DNA of 64,000 nucleotides from an uncultured Gammaproteobacteria bacterium. Lineage in GTDB: Bacteria > Patescibacteriota > Patescibacteriia > Magasanikbacterales > GWA2-37-8. Below, in pieces: positions 17,472-53,791 of the stretch. The stretch covers positions 21,160 through 85,159 of the forward strand of contig CAZUWJ010000001.1 in the NCBI GenBank assembly GCA_964624315.1, given 5' to 3'. Position numbers and translations under genes: made by a program. Position 1 is the first letter of the stretch, and each line of letters begins with the position of its first letter. The notes beneath the pieces were generated by a model. The model worked only from the letters and a program-made list of their open reading frames with translations, was not told where the DNA came from and searched no databases.

Positions 17472-18245
17472 TTATTCTAAAGAATCAATATAATCACTTA
17501 CTTCCCTGGCTAAACGAGTGTAAGATTTTGCTCCTTTACCACGAGGTTCATAGTGAAAAATACTTTTACCAAAACTTGGCGCCTCGGCCAAGCGAACTGT
17601 TCTAGGGATAACTGTCCTAAAAATACTGCTAGGAAAATATTTGTATAATTCATCTAAAATTTCTGATGACAAACGAGTTCTAGCATCATACATAGTCATA
17701 ACAGCCCCTAAAACTTGAAGTTCAGGTTTAATATTTTCTTTAACTAATTCAATGGTTTTCAAAAGTTGCCCCAAACCTTCCAAAGCATAATATTCAGCTT
17801 GAACTGGTATCAAAATTTTATCAGCGGCCACTAGCCCATTCAAAGTCAAAATACCTAAAGAAGGGGGACAGTCAACAATAACATAATCATAAGCATGTTT
17901 GACCTCTCCTAAAATATCAGATAATTTCATCTCTCGGCCTTCAATATTTACTAATTCTACATTAGCTCCTGCTAAATCAGCGGTAGCTGGGACAACTCTT
18001 AGACCTTCGTGAGCGGTATTAAGAACGACATCGTGCAAACGATGTTCACCCATCAAAGCATGATATAATCCCTTTTCTAATTCATTGTGTTTAATGCCTA
18101 ATCCAGAAGTAGCGTTGCCTTGGGGATCCAAATCAACTAATAAAACAAATTTGCCTTGTTCTGCCAAACCGGCTGCTAAATTTACCGCTGTAGTTGTTTT
18201 ACCTACACCACCTTTTTGGTTTACGACAGATATTATATTTGACAT
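17472..18245 (-). CDS. parA: chromosome partitioning ATPase ParA/Soj
   Basis: Deviant Walker A NQKGGVGKTTTAVNLA. Start taken at ATG 18245 (MSNII). The six-frame start at 18254 is TTG. Confidence 0.85.
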   Translation of the reverse strand: MSNIISVVNQKGGVGKTTTAVNLAAGLAEQGKFVLLVDLDPQGNATSGLGIKHNELEKGLYHALMGEHRLHDVVLNTAHEGLRVVPATADLAGANVELVNIEGREMKLSDILGEVKHAYDYVIVDCPPSLGILTLNGLVAADKILIPVQAEYYALEGLGQLLKTIELVKENIKPELQVLGAVMTMYDARTRLSSEILDELYKYFPSSIFRTVIPRTVRLAEAPSFGKSIFHYEPRGKGAKSYTRLAREVSDYIDSLE

Positions 18246-18318
18246 ATAAAACAACCTAAACTAGGTTAAATTTTTTATTAAACTAAAAAATTTACTTAAT
18301 ATACCTATAACAAACACC

Positions 18319-18440
18319 TGTCATCCCGAGCTTGTCGAGGGATCTTTCTTGGTACTTACTTATAAATAGCTACACAAAAAGATTCCTCCACTCCGCTCTG
18401 CCCCTCCTCCTCGTCGGGACGAGCTACGGTCGGAATGACA
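18319..18440. repeat. MITE-like palindromic repeat, GC-rich-core subfamily
   Basis: Termini TGTCATCCCGAG ... CGGAATGACA. Internal GC-rich segment CCGCTCTGCCCCTCCTCCTCGTCGGGACGAGCTACGGTC is shared with 22626..22762 and, in reverse complement, with 53420..53547. Confidence 0.7.
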
Positions 18441-18509
18441 ATTTATTTGAGGCTTTATTTTGTAAAAAAACTTGATACACACTCAAACTAATATAATTAT
18501 ATCATAGAA

Positions 18510-18539
18510 TTGACAAAAGACCAATAATTTTGTATAATG
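18510..18539 (+). promoter_or_regulatory. sigma70-like promoter upstream of the tRNA-Leu / GIY-YIG locus
   Basis: TTGACA, 18-bp spacer, TATAAT, followed by hairpin CTGCCtctctGGCAG. Confidence 0.45.
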
Positions 18540-18634
18540 TAATGGCAAAATTAAGCAATCTGCCTCTCTGGCAGACAAAATAAATAAAAAAATTAATTTT
18601 GACTCTGAAAAATTACGTCAACTTATATTATATA

Positions 18635-18697
18635 TATTAGAACTAATGCTTCGAAAAACGTTAATAATATAAGCCGAAGTGGTGAAACTGGTAGACA
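18635..18697 (+). repeat. partial duplicate of tRNA-Leu(CAA): 27 bp of upstream sequence plus tRNA nt 1-35
   Basis: 63 bp matching 19012..19074 with two mismatches. Homology ends inside the anticodon (..CGACTCA|). It is followed by two hairpins (18698..18760) and the AAGGAG SD of the GIY-YIG gene. Confidence 0.75.
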
Positions 18698-18786
18698 CGC
18701 ACGACTCACCCCAAGCAGAGCAAAGCTCGCTTTGGGGTGTCCCAAACTGAGCTTTGCTCTAGTTGGGACAAAATCTAAGGAGAATT

Positions 18787-19038
18787 ATGTATTATGTATA
18801 TATATTAAAACTTTCAAATAATGATCTATATACTGGTAGAACAAACGACCTAAAAAGAAGGTATAATGAACATTTAAATAAAAAAGTAAAATCAACAGGT
18901 AAATATTGCCCATTAAAATTACTGCATTATGAAGCGTTTCTAGATAAAGAAGATTCTGTGAGAAGAGAAAACTATCTCAAAACTAGTACTGGCAAAAGAA
19001 TGTTAAAACTAATGCTTCGAAAAACATTACTAATATAA
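18787..19038 (+). CDS. small GIY-YIG nuclease-domain protein (URI/YhbQ-like)
   Basis: MYYVYILKLSNNDLYTGRTNDLKRRYNEH fits GIY-x10-YIG plus the conserved R and H/N. An AAGGAG SD lies 6 nt upstream, so 18787 is preferred over the track start 18763. The last 9 codons lie inside the repeat shared with 18635..18661. Confidence 0.7.
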   Translation: MYYVYILKLSNNDLYTGRTNDLKRRYNEHLNKKVKSTGKYCPLKLLHYEAFLDKEDSVRRENYLKTSTGKRMLKLMLRKTLLI

Positions 19039-19120
19039 GCCGAAGTGGTGAAACTGGTAGACACGCACGACTCAAAATCGTGTGGAGCAATCCTTGAGGG
19101 TTCGAGTCCCTCCTTCGGCA
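19039..19120 (+). tRNA. tRNA-Leu (anticodon CAA), class II with long variable arm
   Basis: Acceptor GCCGAAG/CTTCGGC, anticodon stem CACGA/TCGTG with loop CTCAAAA, long variable arm, T-arm GAGGG-TTCGAGT-CCCTC, discriminator A. Confidence 0.85.
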
Positions 19121-19190
19121 CAAGACCTACGGACGATAAACCCTCCTTCGGCACAAAACCCACTTTAACAATAGGGGTATCAATAACCTA

Positions 19191-20171
19191 TTGATACCGT
19201 ATCGATACCCTATGAACTACCTTCACATAATAATTTACGGTTTGACAGCTCTGGCCGTCTTTTTAATTTTTGTTTTTTTAAAAGATACTAAAAATCCAAA
19301 AACTTTTGCTTCAAAAAATAAAAATTTAACTTACGTTTTGATAGCTTTTTTGCTTACTATCTCTTTTGCTGGATTATATACCAGATTCATAGAACCAAAC
19401 ATTTTAATTACCAAAACTCAGTCTATAGATTTATCTAACATGGAGCAACCAATCAAAATATCTTTTATAGCTGATATACAAATCGGCAAATATAAAAAAG
19501 AAAAATGGATGAATAAAATAGTTAAAGAGGTAAAAAAAATAAAACCTGACTTAATACTATTTGGCGGGGACCTAATTTCTAATGAAGGCACGCTGGACGA
19601 TATTAAATATTTAGATACCCTATCTATTTTAACAAAAAACTACCCAACTTACTACATATTAGGAAACCATGAATACGGCTTGGGAGGGATGAACATTTCT
19701 CCAAACAAAAGCACTGGGGACAGAAGCTTAGAAACTATTCTACAAATGAATAAAATCGGAGCTAAATTACTAAGAAACAACTTCGATTGTTTAAGCTTAA
19801 ATAATCAAAAGCTTTGTTTATTTGGCATAGATGATTTATGGGGAGGGGAAATAAATTTTGAAGAATTAAAAAATTGGGATAAAAATGCAACCTTAATATA
19901 TTTAACTCACAATCCTGATGGCATATCCTACTGGCCAAACGATATTAAAAAACCAGATCTAGTTTTGTCCGGCCATACTCACGGAGGTCAAATTTATTTG
20001 CCAATTATTGGACCACTTGGCAATCCAGATGTAAAACTACCAAAAAAATATTGGAGAGGACTAAATTACTTTGACGATATTCCGCTCTATACTTCTTGTG
20101 GGGCCGGAGAATCAGGGGCAAACATACGCTTTCTTACTCCGCCAAGCATTGATGAAATAATATTAAAATAA
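19191..20171 (+). CDS. membrane-anchored calcineurin-like metallophosphoesterase
   Basis: N-terminal TM segment, then FGGDLIS, GNHEY and SGHTHGGQI metallophosphatase motifs. Confidence 0.6.
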   Translation: MIPYRYPMNYLHIIIYGLTALAVFLIFVFLKDTKNPKTFASKNKNLTYVLIAFLLTISFAGLYTRFIEPNILITKTQSIDLSNMEQPIKISFIADIQIGKYKKEKWMNKIVKEVKKIKPDLILFGGDLISNEGTLDDIKYLDTLSILTKNYPTYYILGNHEYGLGGMNISPNKSTGDRSLETILQMNKIGAKLLRNNFDCLSLNNQKLCLFGIDDLWGGEINFEELKNWDKNATLIYLTHNPDGISYWPNDIKKPDLVLSGHTHGGQIYLPIIGPLGNPDVKLPKKYWRGLNYFDDIPLYTSCGAGESGANIRFLTPPSIDEIILK

Positions 20172-22599: not shown

Positions 22600-22625
22600 A
22601 AACGCTAAATCTAAAATAATACACC

Positions 22626-22762
22626 GTCATCCTGATCCGCCAAATGGCGGAGAAGGATCTTTACTACAGATTACATACAAAAAAGTAATGATAGCAACTA
22701 AAGATTCCTCCACTTCGCTCTACCCCGCCTCCTCGGCGGGTTGAGCTACGGTCGGAATGACA
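22626..22762. repeat. MITE-like palindromic repeat, GC-rich-core subfamily
   Basis: CGTCATCCTGATCCGCCAAATGGCGGAGAAGGATCT ... CGGCGGGTTGAGCTACGGTCGGAATGACA, homologous to 18319..18440. Confidence 0.7.
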
Positions 22763-22767
22763 ACGGT

Positions 22768-46692: not shown

Positions 46693-49158
46693 ATGCCACA
46701 AGATTCATTATTGCCAAAAAATCAAATAGGAGAACTAAGAGACATCCCTATCGTAGAAGAAATGGAACGATCATATTTAGAATATGCTATGAGCGTTATT
46801 GTTTCACGTGCCTTACCAGATGTTCGCGATGGCTTGAAACCAGTGCACAGACGTATTCTATATGCTATGTGGGAAATCGGTTTAAGACATAATGCCAAAT
46901 TCAGAAAATCAGCTCATGTAGTCGGTGCAGTGATGGCCAAATATCATCCGCATGGAGATAGTGCTATTTATGATTCTATGGTACGTATGGCCCAAGATTT
47001 TTCCATGCGTGCTCAGATGGTAAACGGTCAAGGTAACTTTGGTTCAATGGACGGAGATAGTGCTGCGGCTATGCGTTATACAGAAGCCAAACTTCGAGCT
47101 ATTGCCGAAGAAATGTTATTTGACATAGAAAAAGACACTGTCAATTTTGTACCCAACTACGATGAGTCCACCAAAGAACCATCAGTTTTACCAGCCAAAT
47201 TACCTCAACTACTTTTAAATGGTAGTACTGGTATCGCCGTTGGTATGGCCACTTCTATTCCTCCCCATAATTTGGGAGAAATTTGTGACGCGGTAACTGC
47301 TTTAATAGACAACCCAGATACTGGTATCGAAGAAATGGTTAATATTATCAAAGGACCAGACTTCCCTACTGGCGGTATTATTTATAATAAAAAAGATATA
47401 CTAGAAGCTTTGGCTACTGGTAGAGGCGGCGTTGTGGTAAGAGCTAAAACAGATATTCAAGAAAAAAAGAGCGGACAATTTCAAATAATCGTAACCGAGG
47501 TTCCCTACCAAGTAAACAAAGCTAATCTTTTAGAAAAAATTGCCAACCTTGTTCAAGAAAAAAAGATAGAAGGTATCAGAGATTTGCGTGATGAATCTAA
47601 TAAAGATGGTGTTCGTGTGGTGATAGAACTAAAAAAAGATGCTTTCCCTAAAAAAGTTTTAAACAGGCTATTCAAACTAACTGATTTACAAACAACTTTT
47701 CATTATAATACTTTAGCTTTGATAGACGGTATCCAACCCAGAATATTAAATGTCAAAAATATTTTAGAAGAGTTTATAAAACACAGAAAAGAAGTAGTCA
47801 AAAGAAGAACTGCGTTTGATCTAAATAAAGCCAAGGAAAGAGCTCATATTTTAGAAGGTCTTAAAAAAGCACTTGATAAAATAGACGCTGTTATCAAAAC
47901 TATTAAAGCTTCCAAGGATAAAGAAGTCGCCCGAACAAATTTAATGAAGACATTTAAATTTACCGAGAGACAAGCTGTGGCTATTTTGGAAATGCGTTTG
48001 CAACAATTAGCAAACTTAGAAAGTAAAAAGATTGAAGATGAATTAAAAGAAAAACAAACCATCATAAAAGAGTTAGGAACTTTGCTGGCCTCTGATAAAA
48101 AAATATTAAAACTTATAAAAACCGAGACTCTAGAGATGAAAGAAAAATATGCTGATAAAAGAAGGACTCAAATAATCCCTCATGGAGTAAAAGAATTTAA
48201 AATTGAAGATTTGGTTCCTAATGAACCAACCTTAGTAATGATTACTACTGATGGATACATAAAACGTTTACCACCTGATACTTTCCGTCAACAATCACGC
48301 GGAGGCAAAGGAGTTATCGGAACAAATTCAAAAGAAGAAGAGAGCGTTGATGAGTTATCTTTGATTAATACTCATGATGACATCATGTTCTTTACTAACA
48401 GAGGACGCGTCTTCAAACTAAAGGCCTACGACATCCCACAGGCTAGTCGCACTGCCAAAGGACAGGCATTAGTAAACTTCTTACAACTTGGCCCAGCAGA
48501 AACTACGACTGCCTTTTTAGCTTTTTCTAATACCAAAAATATCAAAAACCTAGTAATGGTAACTAAAAAAGGATTAATAAAGAAAACTCCTTTAGAAGAT
48601 TTCACTAATGTCAGGAGAGGTGGTTTAATAGCTATCAAATTAAAAGAAGAAGATCATCTAGAATGGGTTGAACCATCATCTGGCAACGACGAGATAATGA
48701 TTGCCACCAAAAAAGGACAGGCAATAAGATTCAAAGAAAAGAACGCTCGCCCAATGGGCAGATCAGCCAGTGGTGTTAGAGCTATCAAATTAAAAAGTAC
48801 TGACGAAGTAATTGCTATGGATGTTGTTGACCCAAAAAATAAAAATCTTGAACTTTTAACTATTTCTGAAAACGGTTTGGGTAAGCGCACTAAAATCTCT
48901 CAATACAAAGTCCAAGGCAGAGGCGGTAGTGGTATCAAAACTATTGATATGACCAAAAAAACTGGTGAACTAATCTTTGCTAAAGCAGTTGACTCTAGCG
49001 AGAAAGCTGACAGCGATGTATTACTCATGTCTACAAAAGGACAAGTAATACGATTGCCTTACAAATCTGTTTCCACTTCTGGTCGCGCCACTCAAGGTGT
49101 GAGACTAATGAGATTCAAAGCAGGTGGAGATAAAGTTTCAGGCGTAGCAATGATATAA
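46693..49158 (+). CDS. gyrA: DNA gyrase subunit A
   Basis: [27 protein letters not shown] catalytic-Tyr region and a QQSRGGKG GyrA-box in the C-terminal beta-pinwheel. Confidence 0.9.
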
Positions 49159-49238: not shown

Positions 49239-49317
49239 TGTCATTCCCGCGAAAGCGAGAATCCAGAAACGTTTTATTGGTAAATTCTCCTGGATCCCCG
49301 CTTTCGCGGGGATGACA
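49239..49317. repeat. MITE-like palindromic repeat, CCCGCGAAAGCG-core variant
   Basis: TGTCATTCCCGCGAAAGCGAGAATCCAG ... CTGGATCCCCGCTTTCGCGGGGATGACA. Confidence 0.7.
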
Positions 49318-49336: not shown

Positions 49337-50734
49337 TTAAAATATTTTATCTACAAAAACTATCGTACTAAAAAACCCAAAGAACAAAAATATTAAGAGA
49401 ATAATTATTCTTCGCCAAAGTCTAGGCTGGCATTCTTTTGGTAATAATTTATAATTTGTCCAATTAACAAGTCCGACATGCACGAACATAGCTACGGCAT
49501 TAATCACTGCTCCTAATATTATTAAAGTTTTTGGTTCATAAATATTAAACAAAAACAGAAGTACCCCAAAGGTAATCTGCGCCCAAACAAAAATAAAATA
49601 AATTTTTGAAAGTTCTAAAGTAGATTCAGGATTATTATGCAATTTTTTGATAGCTACATTTTCAGCCATAATCCTACTAGTAGAATCCATTACCCCTAGC
49701 TGGGTTTGAAAAAGCATTATTGACACTACGGTTAAAAAGAAAGTTCCCAACACCGGAAACAAGGCCTTGCCTATAACCATGCCTTCGCTAATAACAAAAT
49801 TTATCCCTTCACCATTTCCGACCTGCCCAAAAGTCGTAACGTATGACAGGAGCATTAAAAAACACATTGATAACAGCCCTATAAACCAAAACACAAACAG
49901 ATGTTCTAAGGAAATTAACTTCCACCATTTTTTAAAATTACTCAAATTTTCTTCTGTAATCTCAAAATCTTCACCTGATAATTTTAATTTTTGTTTTTTC
50001 TTTAAATTAGCAAAGAGTCCAGCAATTTTTTGAGAGTAAAACCCCATGCCATATCCTTTTTCTTTAATATAGATTGATTGGGTAAGATTTAAATTCCCAC
50101 CTGCTCCAGAATAAGCAAAAGCAGCCAAAAAAGTAGCCAAAGCTATGCCCCGAGGTAAAAACCAAAACCCGTCACCCTTGCCCACCAAACCTTGAAGTAA
50201 AATTCCCCAATCAATTTTAGTAGCCAATATAACAGTTAGAATAAAAATAAATGGCACGCCTAATAAAATAATAGTTCTAGTTAATTTTTCCATTAATCCA
50301 TAAACAGTTTTGCCAGAGGACAAAACCACTCCGATTAAAAGTAAAAAGCCAATGGCTAGCCATTTAAAACTTTCTATTCCAAGTACTACGGAAAAAACTT
50401 TGGCTGAGGCAGCAATAATCCCCGGCAAACCAAAACCAATAAACGTTGAAATTATAAACCAGTACGGAGCACGTTTAAAAATTTTTGCGATACCTACAAA
50501 AACGCTCTCACCTTTTACTAGAGCATAGCGCTCTATCTCCATGTTTATAAAATATTGGAATGTAATACCGAGCATCGCCCCCCAAGCTATCCCCAGGCCG
50601 TAATTTGAAGCCATATAAGGCCACAAGATAACTTCACCAGATCCAAGACCAAGGGCTAAGATAATAAAACTCGGACCAATCAATTTTTTAAATTTTGGTG
50701 GACGAGGAAATGGTTTGTAATTTTTATCTGACAT
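49337..50734 (-). CDS. NRAMP-family-like divalent cation transporter (divergent)
   Basis: 465 aa, 11-12 TM. TM1 region LIGPSFIILALGLGSGEVILWPYMASNYGLGIAW parallels Nramp GPGfLvA.gyiDPGN.aT ..., with GSGE in place of DPGN. Confidence 0.4.
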   Translation of the reverse strand: MSDKNYKPFPRPPKFKKLIGPSFIILALGLGSGEVILWPYMASNYGLGIAWGAMLGITFQYFINMEIERYALVKGESVFVGIAKIFKRAPYWFIISTFIGFGLPGIIAASAKVFSVVLGIESFKWLAIGFLLLIGVVLSSGKTVYGLMEKLTRTIILLGVPFIFILTVILATKIDWGILLQGLVGKGDGFWFLPRGIALATFLAAFAYSGAGGNLNLTQSIYIKEKGYGMGFYSQKIAGLFANLKKKQKLKLSGEDFEITEENLSNFKKWWKLISLEHLFVFWFIGLLSMCFLMLLSYVTTFGQVGNGEGINFVISEGMVIGKALFPVLGTFFLTVVSIMLFQTQLGVMDSTSRIMAENVAIKKLHNNPESTLELSKIYFIFVWAQITFGVLLFLFNIYEPKTLIILGAVINAVAMFVHVGLVNWTNYKLLPKECQPRLWRRIIILLIFLFFGFFSTIVFVDKIF

Positions 50735-53409: not shown

Positions 53410-53419
53410 AAAAACTAAT

Positions 53420-53547
53420 TGTCATTCCGACCGTAGTCCGCCGAAGGAGGCGGACGAAGCGGAGGAATCTTTCTGTATAATTACCAAAAAAGATCTCTCC
53501 ATTTCGTTCGTATCCACTCACTTCAGTCGAGATGACAGTATTATCAC
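53420..53547. repeat. MITE-like palindromic repeat, GC-rich-core subfamily, inverted orientation
   Basis: TGTCATTCCGACCGTAGTCCGCCGAAGGAGGCGGACGAAGCGGAGGAATCTT ... CAGTCGAGATGACA is the reverse-complement form of 18319..18440. Confidence 0.7.
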
Positions 53548-53565
53548 AAACTGATAATTTAACCT

Positions 53566-53638
53566 GGGTCGCTAGCTCAGTTGGTAGAGCAGGTCCCTCT
53601 TAAGGACAAGGTCCAGGGTTCGATCCCCTGGCGACCCA
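53566..53638 (+). tRNA. tRNA-Lys (anticodon CTT)
   Basis: Acceptor GGGTCGC/GCGACCC, D-arm GCTC-AGTTGGTA-GAGC, anticodon loop CTCTTAA, T-arm CAGGG-TTCGATC-CCCTG. Confidence 0.85.
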
Positions 53639-53646
53639 CACTAATA

Positions 53647-53718
53647 GCCCCTGTAGTGAAATGGATATCATGCTTGGCTTCGGACTAAGTGTTCCGGGTT
53701 CGAATCCTGGTGGGGGCA
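53647..53718 (+). tRNA. tRNA-Arg (anticodon TCG)
   Basis: Acceptor GCCCCTG/TGGGGGC (two GU pairs), anticodon stem CTTGG/CTAAG with loop CTTCGGA, T-arm CCGGG-TTCGAAT-CCTGG, short variable loop. Confidence 0.75.
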
Positions 53719-53791
53719 CAAAATATTAAAAATAAAAAATACTCCAGCAAATGGAGTATTTTTTATTTCGAGACATCTTCCCCAAATTATA

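Follow-up and report, generated by a model that had tools for sequence, protein, structure and literature searches.

In a stretch of genomic DNA of 64,000 nucleotides, referred to here as the window, a gene for a small GIY-YIG nuclease lies between a broken and an intact copy of the same tRNA-Leu(CAA) gene. This raises the question how the nuclease gene came to lie there, and how a functional tRNA gene is preserved next to it. As empty-site reference we used L093, the closest relative (ParA 97.7% identical). The locus is composed of the following features:

18510..18538, + strand: resident tRNA-Leu promoter TTGACA-17-TATAAT (consensus 12/12), now ahead of the whole unit
18589..18633, + strand: start of the window-specific insertion, 45 nt, AT-rich, absent from L093 (alignment lost after 18588)
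18634..18672, + strand: upstream part of repeat copy 1, in frame and ending in ..YILELMLRKTLII plus stop; matches the 3' end of the live ORF at 35/39 positions
18673..18708, + strand: tRNA-Leu(CAA) 5' fragment, nt 1-36, ending in ..CTCA; 36/36 identical to 19039-19074
18709..18768, no strand assigned: H, a palindromic double hairpin (hp1 18709-18737, TG, hp2 18740-18768; inverted repeat I2)
18771..18775, + strand: AAATC, tRNA nt 37-41 resumed after H and end of the broken copy (direct reading)
18777..18782, + strand: Shine-Dalgarno sequence AAGGAG, 4 nt ahead of the ATG (direct reading)
18787..19038, + strand: gene for an 83-aa single-domain GIY-YIG nuclease (Pfam PF01541); its stop codon abuts tRNA nt 1
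19039..19121, + strand: intact tRNA-Leu(CAA) (ARAGORN; Rfam 58 bits), identical to L093 2361-2443
19122..19153, + strand: spacer caagacctacggacgataaa, then a duplicated 13-nt tRNA 3' end (19141-19153, ccctccttcggca), defined by direct repeat D2 and the L093 alignment

Structure of the tRNA-Leu locus

The direct repeat shared by the two tRNA copies is 75 nt long (18634-18708 versus 19000-19074; 71/75 identical; E = 2.5e-28 in blastn against the whole window), with a start-to-start spacing of 366 nt. It consists of 39 nt of upstream sequence plus tRNA nt 1-36 and ends after the second anticodon base. The initial annotation of this DNA, made from the sequence alone, had reported a 63-bp repeat composed of 27 bp of upstream sequence plus tRNA nt 1-35; it was right about the second copy (19012-19074), the break inside the anticodon and the complete tRNA-Leu that follows, but its first copy (18635-18697) was placed 11 nt too far to the left, since the true partner is 18646-18708. 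Likewise, the second repeat copy includes the last 12 codons of the nuclease gene plus the stop codon, not just the last nine codons. As the first 39 nt of the repeat are GIY-YIG coding sequence that is missing from the empty site, we rejected the idea that the 75-nt repeat is a target-site duplication.

From the upstream part of copy 1, ILELMLRKTLII aligned to residues 72-83 of the ORF in a tblastn search, and a 16-nt match (D3) ties this part to the N-terminal codons of the ORF as well. Judged by these alignments, 18634..18672 appears to be what is left of an older GIY-YIG gene that suffered an internal deletion. Two further details were absent from the initial annotation. The pentanucleotide AAATC takes up the tRNA exactly at the break point of copy 1, and the 3' end of the tRNA is involved in a second small duplication (19108-19130 and 19141-19163, D2). 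The spacer and the 13-nt tRNA 3' end form a 33-nt insertion relative to L093, beyond which the common downstream flank resumes; the 13-nt repeat makes it impossible to place this insertion exactly. The spacer is similar to the one preceding the right-hand tRNA fragment in locus L009.

The two hairpins previously seen between the repeat copies together constitute one 60-nt palindromic unit, H, with the dinucleotide CA on either side (18707-18708 and 18769-18770). H folds with z-scores of -5.0 as DNA and -4.8 as RNA, and homologous hairpins with compensatory changes are present in L015 and L012. Across loci, the stems covary, the loops are conserved (ATYC, GRAT), the two halves of the unit mirror each other around a central CG, and H is bordered by CG or CA on both sides; the H of the window is a long variant without the GTCAT motif. 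Its position and architecture are repeated at about 28 other loci (see below). These hairpins inside the broken loop are the hallmark of the element, which had been missed before.

The promoter ahead of the unit, already recognised as a consensus promoter, is found together with the same leader directly before tRNA-Leu in L093. Because this resident tRNA promoter lies upstream, transcription of the tRNA 5' half as a tRNA-half-like RNA, as suggested earlier, is plausible. The predicted Shine-Dalgarno sequence was also found in place.

Comparison with the empty site

The DNA flanking the locus is 93% and 88-89% identical between L093 and the window. L093 carries the same promoter-leader and an identical tRNA-Leu, without the GIY-YIG gene, the hairpin or the tRNA fragment, which agrees with the trace of homing or insertion that the initial annotation had assumed. 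Missing in L093 are 450 nt (18589-19038) and the 33 nt after the tRNA, so that the two genomes differ by an insertion polymorphism of ~480 nt. This window-specific DNA encodes the GIY-YIG ORF only, and no tyrosine or serine recombinase gene. Thus, at a conserved tRNA-Leu site the nuclease gene is present in the window and absent from its close relative. The next relatives, L096, L098 and L100 (ParA 78-82%), are without the nuclease gene as well, and more distant lineages (ParA 71-73%, Metallophos 33-39%) carry a nuclease that is 59-76% identical at the same tRNA-Leu. A comparison of relatives had been recommended for the GIY-YIG insert; it revealed homologues at tRNA genes with a like partial duplication, also in unrelated phyla.

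The 83-aa GIY-YIG protein

The assignment of the 83-aa protein to the GIY-YIG nucleases stands: Pfam PF01541 covers residues 1-70 (E = 2.3e-14; 53.9 bits versus a cut-off of 22.6). The AF2 model (pLDDT 93.6) has a GIY-YIG fold with the order beta-beta-alpha-beta-alpha-alpha, the full length forming one domain, and neither Pfam nor the model gave any further (DNA-binding) domain within the 83 aa. Residues Y3, Y5, Y15, G17, R25, H29 and E61, catalytic residues included, are invariant in 24 family members. The best PDB matches (Foldseek) are UPF0213 (1zg2), Slx1 (6seh) and I-TevI (1ln0), and the protein groups with UPF0213, Ssn and Slx1 rather than with I-TevI.

The Ssn family comprises single-domain GIY-YIG ssDNA nucleases with NTS/SRM hairpin repeats (Chenal et al. 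2025, PMC11893778). Ssn binds an ssDNA hairpin and cuts a few nt 5' of it, and its gene is often hairpin-flanked (PMC11893778). By profile search we obtained two Ssn-type ORFs, which are NTS-flanked; a regular-expression search for Ssn ORFs near NTS motifs found none. The 83-aa protein is 38% identical (E = 1e-12) to an NTS/SRM-flanked Ssn-type ORF, with an hhalign probability of 96.7%. The protein is related to UPF0213 as well as to the Ssn nucleases. In both Ssn and the present family, proteins of ~80-95 aa consist of the GIY-YIG domain alone, and a GC-rich hairpin repeat is in close linkage with the gene. A further parallel may exist at loci with a short H, where the tRNA/H junction lies 4 nt 5' of GTCAT and Ssn cuts about as far 5' of CGTCAT... 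On the other hand, the family profile is at least as close to UPF0213 (BH0048, 1zg2; 58 bits) as to Ssn (47 bits), and the hairpin of the element is embedded in a broken tRNA loop with partial tRNA duplication; tRNA is not mentioned in the Ssn paper (PMC11893778). The published SRM motif, applied as a regular expression, had 0 matches in 90+ GIY-YIG loci, H included, so H is not a canonical SRM. Canonical SRMs are present elsewhere in the window (49239-49317), and SRM-like MITEs occur in this genome that are absent from its sister.

A family of probable insertions in tRNA loops

The comparison of homologous loci covered 89 nuclease ORFs from Patescibacteria, Cloacimonadota and other phyla. A same-strand tRNA was located within 320 nt of 62 of them, with 29 anticodon types represented. 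The density of tRNA genes was 1.50 per kb near the ORF versus 0.094 per kb at distances of at least 700 nt, and the strand ratio was 71:1. About 28 loci have the order tRNA fragment, H, 5-9 nt, ORF and intact tRNA, or its mirror image; the break of the tRNA falls within the anticodon, T or D loop, and H caps the fragment there. Beyond H, the tRNA continues for 5-12 nt across loci (5-9 nt in nearly all related ones).

Scanning metagenomes for H only, we found T-loop sequence at 74/87 sites versus 0.5% of random positions. A nuclease gene lies within 150 nt at 26 of 89 H sites; the remainder are solo or arrayed. When H was removed and ARAGORN rerun on the 89 sites, no convincing full-length tRNA emerged across H; there were five weak calls, all of them truncated fragments beside the nuclease start. 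Since removal of H restores no convincing full-length tRNA, H was rejected as a tRNA intron.

Tandem arrays are found in L039, L033 and L120, and decayed copies, frameshifted copies and solo scars are common. At L028 and L012, the fragment deviates in sequence from the intact tRNA. The hairpin repeat sequence co-varies with the nuclease clade; in the 78-aa "..FRNKRLI" clade a recognisable tRNA fragment is often lacking. Viral contigs contained two weak relatives only, which indicates that the element is not phage-borne. The locus of the window is one member of a large family that affects many tRNAs at the anticodon, T and D loops.

Proposed mode of invasion

We consider it quite probable that the unit 18589-19153 represents a selfish element that lives in tRNA genes, and that this copy was acquired recently. 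Such an element would have two parts: the gene for a GIY-YIG nuclease of ~80 aa with a single domain, and H, the GC-rich palindromic double hairpin, positioned exactly at the break of the tRNA loop. The broken tRNA copy would extend from its natural end up to the loop, be capped by H and stop 5-12 nt past H, towards the nuclease gene. On the far side of that gene the same tRNA would be present in intact form, so that the host keeps it. The nuclease gene would be expressed from the captured tRNA promoter, as part of a fragment-H-ORF-tRNA co-transcript.

As cut site we propose a Y-R^R step in exposed loops of tRNA genes; this would be CA^AA at the present locus, and CG^AA both in T loops and in the anticodon loop of Ser-CGA. 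A 2-nt stagger of the cut, typical of GIY-YIG homing enzymes, would account for the dinucleotide (CG or CA) that borders H on either side. The break could then be mended from the element-bearing copy, with the conserved tRNA sequence as portable homology, and the repair would copy H, the nuclease gene and that part of the tRNA required to rebuild an intact gene. Repeated cutting and unequal repair may lead to tandem arrays, and loss of the nuclease gene may leave solo "fragment + H" scars. For the window, the history may have been that an older GIY-YIG gene resided upstream of tRNA-Leu before a second copy entered the anticodon loop; the 39 nt of GIY-YIG coding sequence in the repeat would follow from this. 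Substrate, cut site and strand specificity of the nuclease are here predicted from sequence patterns.

Some observations complicate this scheme. The occupied allele keeps an intact and presumably cleavable tRNA, so that the scheme does not account for immunity of the element-bearing site. Compared with L093, the left junction is found at tRNA nt 1 and not in the loop; to explain this, one has to assume that the site was invaded twice in succession or that a whole cassette took the place of the resident gene. As both tRNA copies of the window equal the L093 tRNA, sequence alone cannot tell an incoming copy from an in situ duplication. Instead of a gain in the window, a clean deletion in L093 is formally conceivable.

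Alternative explanations and related systems

The GIY-YIG protein might instead benefit its host as a tRNA-gene-linked repair or processing factor, with the fragment-hairpin leader as a regulatory or processing element for the nuclease mRNA and the tRNA transcribed with it. The proximity to tRNA genes on strictly the same strand (71:1), the predicted transcription from the tRNA promoter and the compensatory changes that maintain the hairpin stems are in line with such a role. Additionally, the few tRNA bases past H could close a three-way junction, and Ssn has been proposed to serve genome dynamics in Neisseria (PMC11893778). We regard this explanation as unlikely, as the gene is missing at the same locus in the closest relative and the next three, has no fixed partner among 29 tRNA anticodon types, and is commonly found in decayed, frameshifted, solo and tandem copies; moreover, the fragment and the intact tRNA are of different origins at some loci.

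Tyrosine-recombinase islands, prophages and other integrative elements have the anticodon or T loop of tRNA genes as their classic targets, where duplication of part of the tRNA leaves an intact gene. The locus could accordingly represent attL/attR-type scars of an integrase island once attached at tRNA-Leu, with the GIY-YIG gene as leftover cargo. Indeed, foreign GC-rich ORFs follow the same tRNA-Leu in L096 and L100, and an extra ORF does so in L001. It is nevertheless very improbable that an island left these traces: the whole difference from the empty site is ~480 nt and encodes the 83-aa nuclease only, the duplicated 5' half with a conserved hairpin at the break is not a feature of att sites, and the same compact architecture recurs at dozens of loci. 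The element is ~0.4-0.5 kb in size, either the 5' or the 3' part of the tRNA is duplicated, and a palindromic hairpin is located at the break.

The break in the anticodon loop of tRNA-Leu falls where bacterial tRNA-Leu genes classically harbour group I introns, GIY-YIG enzymes typically occur as endonucleases encoded in introns, and there is a weak match to an NCBIfam group I intron endonuclease family (18 bits versus a cut-off of 56). That the locus descends from a group I (or other) tRNA intron and its homing endonuclease, with decay of the ribozyme after the duplication had rescued the tRNA, is just as improbable as the island. No ribozyme core or other intron-like family was detected by Rfam at E <= 10 over 17500-20000, where the hits were tRNA and noise only, in keeping with the earlier judgement that this is not a group I intron. 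H is a palindrome of 40-60 nt and no ribozyme, the same element resides in T and D loops too, H-bearing copies are never full-length tRNAs, and the protein is without a DNA-binding domain and outside the I-TevI group. What the element has in common with group I introns and inteins is the combination of a selfish nuclease with a device that preserves the function of the host gene; here, however, the device would be a partial gene duplication in DNA instead of splicing.

An assembly artefact or chance repeat is extremely improbable. Metagenome-type assemblies may misjoin repeats, but an E value of 2.5e-28 was obtained for this one, three public sources list the identical protein on an 85.6-kb contig, and assemblies made independently from many other samples and phyla show the same architecture.

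The reading as a selfish tRNA-gene coloniser finds a parallel in free-standing GIY-YIG homing genes such as segB of phage T4, which lies in a tRNA gene cluster (PMC2330249). In both cases, the GIY-YIG gene is located among or beside tRNA genes, is present or absent between close relatives and would spread by break repair via flanking homology. SegB leaves mostly 2-nt 3' ends (PMC2330249), a stagger that fits the 2-nt duplication of the element. Unlike the element, Seg enzymes have a separate DNA-binding domain (as in the I-TevI type) and do not split their target gene; with the element, the target tRNA is interrupted within a loop, a hairpin closes off the broken end, and a duplicate makes up for the loss. 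The element is also chromosomal and essentially absent from viral contigs. IS200/IS605 elements, REP/RAYT systems and MITEs resemble it in that hairpins define their ends, the protein is small and of nuclease type, and derivatives without the protein are abundant, as are tandem clusters present. In contrast to IS200/IS605 and REP/RAYT, its enzyme and only ORF is GIY-YIG and not HUH (Y1), and it targets tRNA loops, with duplication of a gene part and a 2-nt repeat.

Significance of the proposed tRNA-gene element

A full-text literature search turned up no report in which a GIY-YIG gene or a hairpin lies within a tRNA loop and the tRNA is duplicated, and a survey of GIY-YIG proteins from 2006 does not mention such an element. 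We tentatively suggest, with slightly more doubt than conviction, a new class of minimal mobile elements of 0.1-0.5 kb. In these, an Ssn-like hairpin-recognising nuclease would pick T-loop-like 7-nt loops (N-T-C-R^A-A-N) exposed single-stranded in tRNA genes and install its cognate palindromic hairpin with a 2-nt duplication, the essential gene being saved by partial duplication and not by RNA or protein splicing. The same nuclease may drive SRM-like MITEs.

If true, this would add a third way, beside introns and inteins, in which an element can home into an essential gene and leave its function intact. It would also give a huge family of tiny GIY-YIG proteins, whose only characterised relatives, the Ssn nucleases (2025), have an unclear natural function outside Neisseria, a concrete role as selfish invaders of tRNA genes. 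The numerous tRNA gene fragments and GC-rich palindromes beside tRNA genes in Patescibacteria and other uncultured phyla would be accounted for; such fragments can mislead tRNA annotation and searches for "tRNA halves". Nucleases specific for T-loop-like hairpins are possible tools for work with single-stranded DNA. For the family itself, the conserved tRNA would act as portable homology for transfer between distant hosts.

The tRNA-Leu(CAA) locus

The unit at 18589-19153 is composed of a tRNA-Leu(CAA) fragment, a palindromic double hairpin (H), an 83-aa GIY-YIG gene and an intact tRNA-Leu(CAA).

Features of the unit and its promoter
18510-18538, consensus promoter (12/12 match)
18634-18708, copy 1 of a direct repeat, including the 5' part of the broken left tRNA-Leu copy
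18709-18768, H
18777-18782, AAGGAG preceding the ORF
18787-19038, 83-aa GIY-YIG ORF (Pfam GIY-YIG, E = 2.3e-14)
19000-19074, copy 2 of the direct repeat
19039-19121, intact tRNA-Leu(CAA)

Promoter, AAGGAG motif and nuclease ORF had been described in the initial annotation and were recovered here; the promoter is that of the resident tRNA, with the whole unit downstream of it. Public sources list the identical 83-aa protein (P0001). The direct repeat also exists (E = 2.5e-28, blastn against the whole window), but with 75 nt (71 identical; 366 nt from start to start) it is longer than the 63 nt originally assigned, and the 63-nt partner of 19012-19074 is 18646-18708 instead of 18635-18697. It does combine the tRNA-Leu 5' part with upstream DNA, the extents being 39 nt and tRNA nt 1-36 rather than 27 bp and nt 1-35. 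Read in frame, the 39 nt upstream of copy 1 give ..YILELMLRKTLII*, a GIY-YIG N-terminal stub joined to a C-terminus. Downstream of the intact tRNA, its last 13 bases are repeated after a 20-nt spacer (repeat D2).

The two hairpins noticed between the repeat copies are present, but form one palindromic unit rather than separate structures: H consists of two 29-nt hairpins with TG between them, and as their loops are mutually complementary it can fold as one 24-bp hairpin (fold z-scores of about -5). CA is found on either side of H, followed by AAATC, the exact tRNA sequence past the break. Because AAATC continues the tRNA, copy 1 corresponds to tRNA nt 1-41, interrupted in the anticodon loop by H. 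It stops 5 nt past H, at the start of the SD and ORF.

The orthologous locus in relatives

The lineages compared share the synteny ParB-ParA-[..]-metallophosphoesterase and fall into two groups, with and without the GIY-YIG gene.

Relatives with the syntenic locus (identities to the window)
L001, L002, L009, L013, L015: ParA 71-73%; metallophosphoesterase 33-39%; GIY-YIG gene directly 5' of tRNA-Leu(CAA), 59-76% identical
L012: locus ends short of ParA; metallophosphoesterase 37%; GIY-YIG gene directly 5' of tRNA-Leu(CAA), 70% identical
L093 (closest relative): ParA 97.7%; metallophosphoesterase 88.7%; GIY-YIG gene absent
L096, L098, L100: ParA 78-82%; metallophosphoesterase 51-53%; GIY-YIG gene absent

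In L093 (ParB 94.9% identical; flanking DNA 93% and 88-89%), the same promoter and leader lead directly into an identical tRNA-Leu, and neither nuclease gene nor H nor tRNA fragments were found at this locus. Relative to L093, the window has 450 extra nt at 18589-19038, directly 5' of tRNA nt 1, and a further 33 nt at the 3' end of the tRNA. The unit is thus an insertion polymorphism; the initial annotation had suspected homing or target-site duplication. Since the nearest relatives lack the element and distant ones carry it, its distribution is patchy. This fits a gain after the split of the window lineage from L093; a clean loss in L093 is formally conceivable.

Carriers differ in their state of decay. 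In L002 and L009 only tRNA nt 1-12 are left, followed by a homologous but interrupted hairpin region, and in L009 the tRNA is followed downstream by a T-arm fragment that carries a 37-nt insert. L012 and L013 are devoid of a left fragment and carry 'acacgactca + H + aaaatcgtg...' downstream of the intact tRNA; this sequence is the 3' part of another tRNA-Leu allele whose anticodon loop contains H.

Other changes were seen at this tRNA. In L096 (1750-2460) and L100 (1760-2440), both without nuclease, tRNA-Leu(CAA) and a terminator are followed by a markedly GC-rich ORF of ~155-240 aa; these ORFs have no Pfam match and look like a separate foreign insertion at this tRNA. A further extra ORF follows tRNA-Leu in L001 (228 aa, opposite strand), and in L098 the tRNA-Leu is inverted.

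The same architecture in other bacteria

A scan with the nuclease alignment (one genome per species) yielded 80 loci, which represent the best protein matches and not a random sample. They stem from many Patescibacteria lineages, Cloacimonadota, Kiritimatiellae, Lentisphaerae, Bdellovibrio and MAGs labelled Gammaproteobacteria. A same-strand tRNA lies within 320 nt of the ORF in 62 of 89 homologous ORFs (41 downstream, 21 upstream), with 29 anticodon types represented. The tRNA density is 1.50 per kb near the ORF versus 0.094 per kb at distances of at least 700 nt, and all but one of the nearby tRNAs are on the same strand (71 versus 1).

The window design recurs in ~28 loci, as counted with exact seeds that miss decayed fragments; the nuclease is hence not simply found at unrelated loci devoid of tRNA duplication, the outcome against which the initial annotation had cautioned. 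Two configurations occur:

Configuration A: tRNA 5' fragment, H, 5-9 nt continuing the local tRNA, a few nt, ORF, intact tRNA
Configuration B (mirror; L029, L087, L089): intact tRNA, ORF, 6-12 nt of tRNA, H, 3' fragment

Breaks are located after the fourth base of the anticodon loop (Leu-CAA, Ser-CGA, Arg-CCG and others), after TTCG in the T loop, or in the D loop. Beside the broken tRNA an intact copy always remains, and similarity between the two usually begins at tRNA nt 1. In L028 and L012 they are different alleles, therefore fragment and intact copy differ in origin at least sometimes. Recognisable fragments are often absent in the 78-aa nuclease clade, and in L039 and L033 the unit forms tandem arrays.

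L033 (4100-5100) also contains a second, more distant small GIY-YIG gene (MYCVYMAQS..) in tandem duplicate. Each copy is preceded by tRNA-Ser(GGA) nt 1-31, the 22-nt mini-palindrome GCCCGAAGGGCGCCCTTCGGGC and nt 32-43, and the right-hand fragment downstream of the intact tRNA reads 'nt 22-31 + palindrome + nt 32-91'; this is therefore the same design, but it uses another hairpin and the break falls within the anticodon stem. In L039 (2000-2060), extra single H-type hairpins, e.g. accatgtcgaatgacatggt and ccatatcatacgatatgg, are present in the D-arm region of a tRNA-Ser fragment that is itself already broken, which suggests that single hairpins can move alone into tRNA-like sequence.

A metagenome scan by the H pattern, without tRNA or protein information, gave at least 80 loci with at least 89 H sites. 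Two of the 89 listed sites are at contig ends; among the 87 assessed, T-loop sequence flanks H in 74 (45 on both sides, 29 on one), compared to 0.5% at random positions of the same loci, and anticodon loops hold several of the others listed. H is strongly target-specific for tRNA loops. Across phyla, there is a tight association of the nuclease gene with H and broken tRNA loops. A nuclease ORF lies within 150 nt of H in only 26 of the 89 listed sites. Most other listed sites are solo units separated by a few nt from an intact tRNA, of the form 'tRNA + spacer + GGTTCG-H-CGAATCC..3' end' or its upstream mirror image. Decay products and arrays are common; among the matches listed, L120 has five 70-nt units following tRNA-Asp. 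Nuclease-less units of 70-80 nt (spacer, GGTTCG, H and tRNA 3' end) occur in L120 (1378-1730), L117, L127, L145 and L151 in up to five tandem repeats directly after an intact tRNA.

Hairpin and nuclease

H of the largest nuclease clade follows the pattern CCNNGTC-ATYC-GACNNGG CG CCNNGTC-GRAT-GACNNGG CG. Hairpin 2 is the reverse complement of hairpin 1, making H symmetric around its central CG. Covariation is free in the 7-bp stems, with loops and closing pairs conserved; together, loops and closing pairs read TCGAAT and ATTCGA, i.e. the T-loop motif on both strands. The target dinucleotide on both sides of H is CG in this clade, whereas the window, L015 and L023 have CA. The Leu clade, including the window, has longer hairpins with pairing likewise maintained by compensatory changes. 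Hairpin types track nuclease clades, which tend to keep within isoacceptor families (Leu, Arg, Ser).

The AF2 model of the window protein (pLDDT 93.6) shows a GIY-YIG fold, the best-matching solved structures being UPF0213 BH0048 (1zg2), Slx1, EF2693 and the I-TevI catalytic domain. Within the family there is no variation at the catalytic positions Tyr, Tyr, Arg and Glu. Two Ssn-type ORFs with canonical NTS repeats alongside were recovered (L258, L224). The window protein is 38% identical to one (E = 1e-12) and matches the other with an hhalign probability of 96.7%. Ssn binds an ssDNA hairpin and cuts a few nt 5' of it, and such hairpins often flank Ssn genes, an arrangement termed IS-like (PMC11893778). 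That paper makes no mention of tRNA, the tRNA-loop setting being a feature of the window element, and H does not fit its SRM search motif. In members of the short-H clade, tRNA and H meet 4 nt 5' of GTCAT, approximately the position of the Ssn cut relative to its CGTCAT motif. Because of this similar distance, H may be the nuclease's own binding site.

SRM-like elements in the window

The published SRM pattern has two matches in the window (0-1 in shuffles), both at 49239-49317; a second GIY-YIG gene was not found within the window.

Canonical and degenerate motif pairs
49239-49317: inverted pair of canonical Ssn-related motifs, TGTCATTCCCGCGAAAGCGAGAATCCAG (+ strand, 49239-49266) and TGTCATCCCCGCGAAAGCGGGGATCCAG (- strand, 49290-49317), both almost identical to the Neisseria NTS consensus, between convergent ORFs 46693-49158 (+) and 49337-50734 (-)
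18248-18484: 237 nt between parA and the tRNA-Leu promoter (4 nt in L093), with an inverted, degenerate SRM-like pair, GTCATCCCGAGCTTGTCGAGGGATC (~18320-18345, +) and GTCATTCCGACC...GGAGGAATC (- strand, ending 18441)
22602-22766: another insertion of the window that L093 lacks (165 nt), with inverted SRM-like motifs at its borders, CGTCATCCTGATCCGCCAAATGGCGGAGAAGGATC (left) and ..GGTCGGAATGAC (right)
53417-53560: SRM-like element GTCATTCCGACCGTAGTCCGCCGAAGGAGGCGGACGAAGCGGAGGAATC, whose inverted partner ends in ..cgagatgac, just upstream of a tRNA-Lys + tRNA-Arg pair (53566-53719)

The 18248-18484 insertion resembles a MITE, positioned ~350 nt 5' of the nuclease gene, and 22700-22763 is 91% identical to 18378-18441. 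Two such MITEs and the nuclease cassette thus distinguish the window from L093 within 7 kb. This raises the question whether this nuclease moves these MITEs. From ~20 kb onward (20000-64000), most of the window has a strongly and persistently negative GC skew (about -0.2 to -0.3), with short reversals near 24-26, 46-50 and 52-54 kb.

Possible mechanism and origin

Judging from sequence comparison, the nuclease would cut at a Y-R^R step within loops of tRNA genes; these loops may be exposed as hairpins when tRNA genes are single-stranded, e.g. during heavy transcription, replication or DNA uptake. A cut stagger of 2 nt, known for GIY-YIG homing enzymes such as SegB (PMC2330249), would generate the 2-nt repeat around H. 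The break would be repaired from an element-bearing copy, homology being provided by the tRNA halves, and tandem arrays would result if the intact copy that survives is cut again and again. Repair via tRNA halves would account for the similarity from tRNA nt 1, the clades within isoacceptors and the arrays. For the window, we infer as the simplest account that an older GIY-YIG gene was already located 5' of tRNA-Leu, as in L012, that a second copy entered the anticodon loop, and that most of the first gene was later lost by internal deletion.

Against an arrangement beneficial to the host speak its patchy distribution, the variety of tRNA partners and the abundance of decay products. The scar of an integrase island is likewise disfavoured because the nuclease is the sole coding content of the entire insertion. 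A degenerate intron would have to do without any ribozyme and to account for T- and D-loop sites, which speaks against it; at the window locus Rfam finds only the tRNA and no intron family even at E <= 10, in line with the initial annotation's exclusion of a canonical group I intron. H as an intron of working tRNAs was also rejected, since removal of H gave no convincing full-length tRNA spanning any listed site; among the matches listed, the H-bearing copy is always truncated just past H on one side. The design recurs in assemblies that are independent of each other, which excludes an assembly artefact.

We found no earlier description of this nuclease/H/tRNA-duplication arrangement in the full-text literature, largely of non-subscription journals. 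The element builds on known kinds, namely GIY-YIG selfish elements and Ssn-hairpin modules; distinctive are its tRNA-loop target and the compensation through partial gene duplication.
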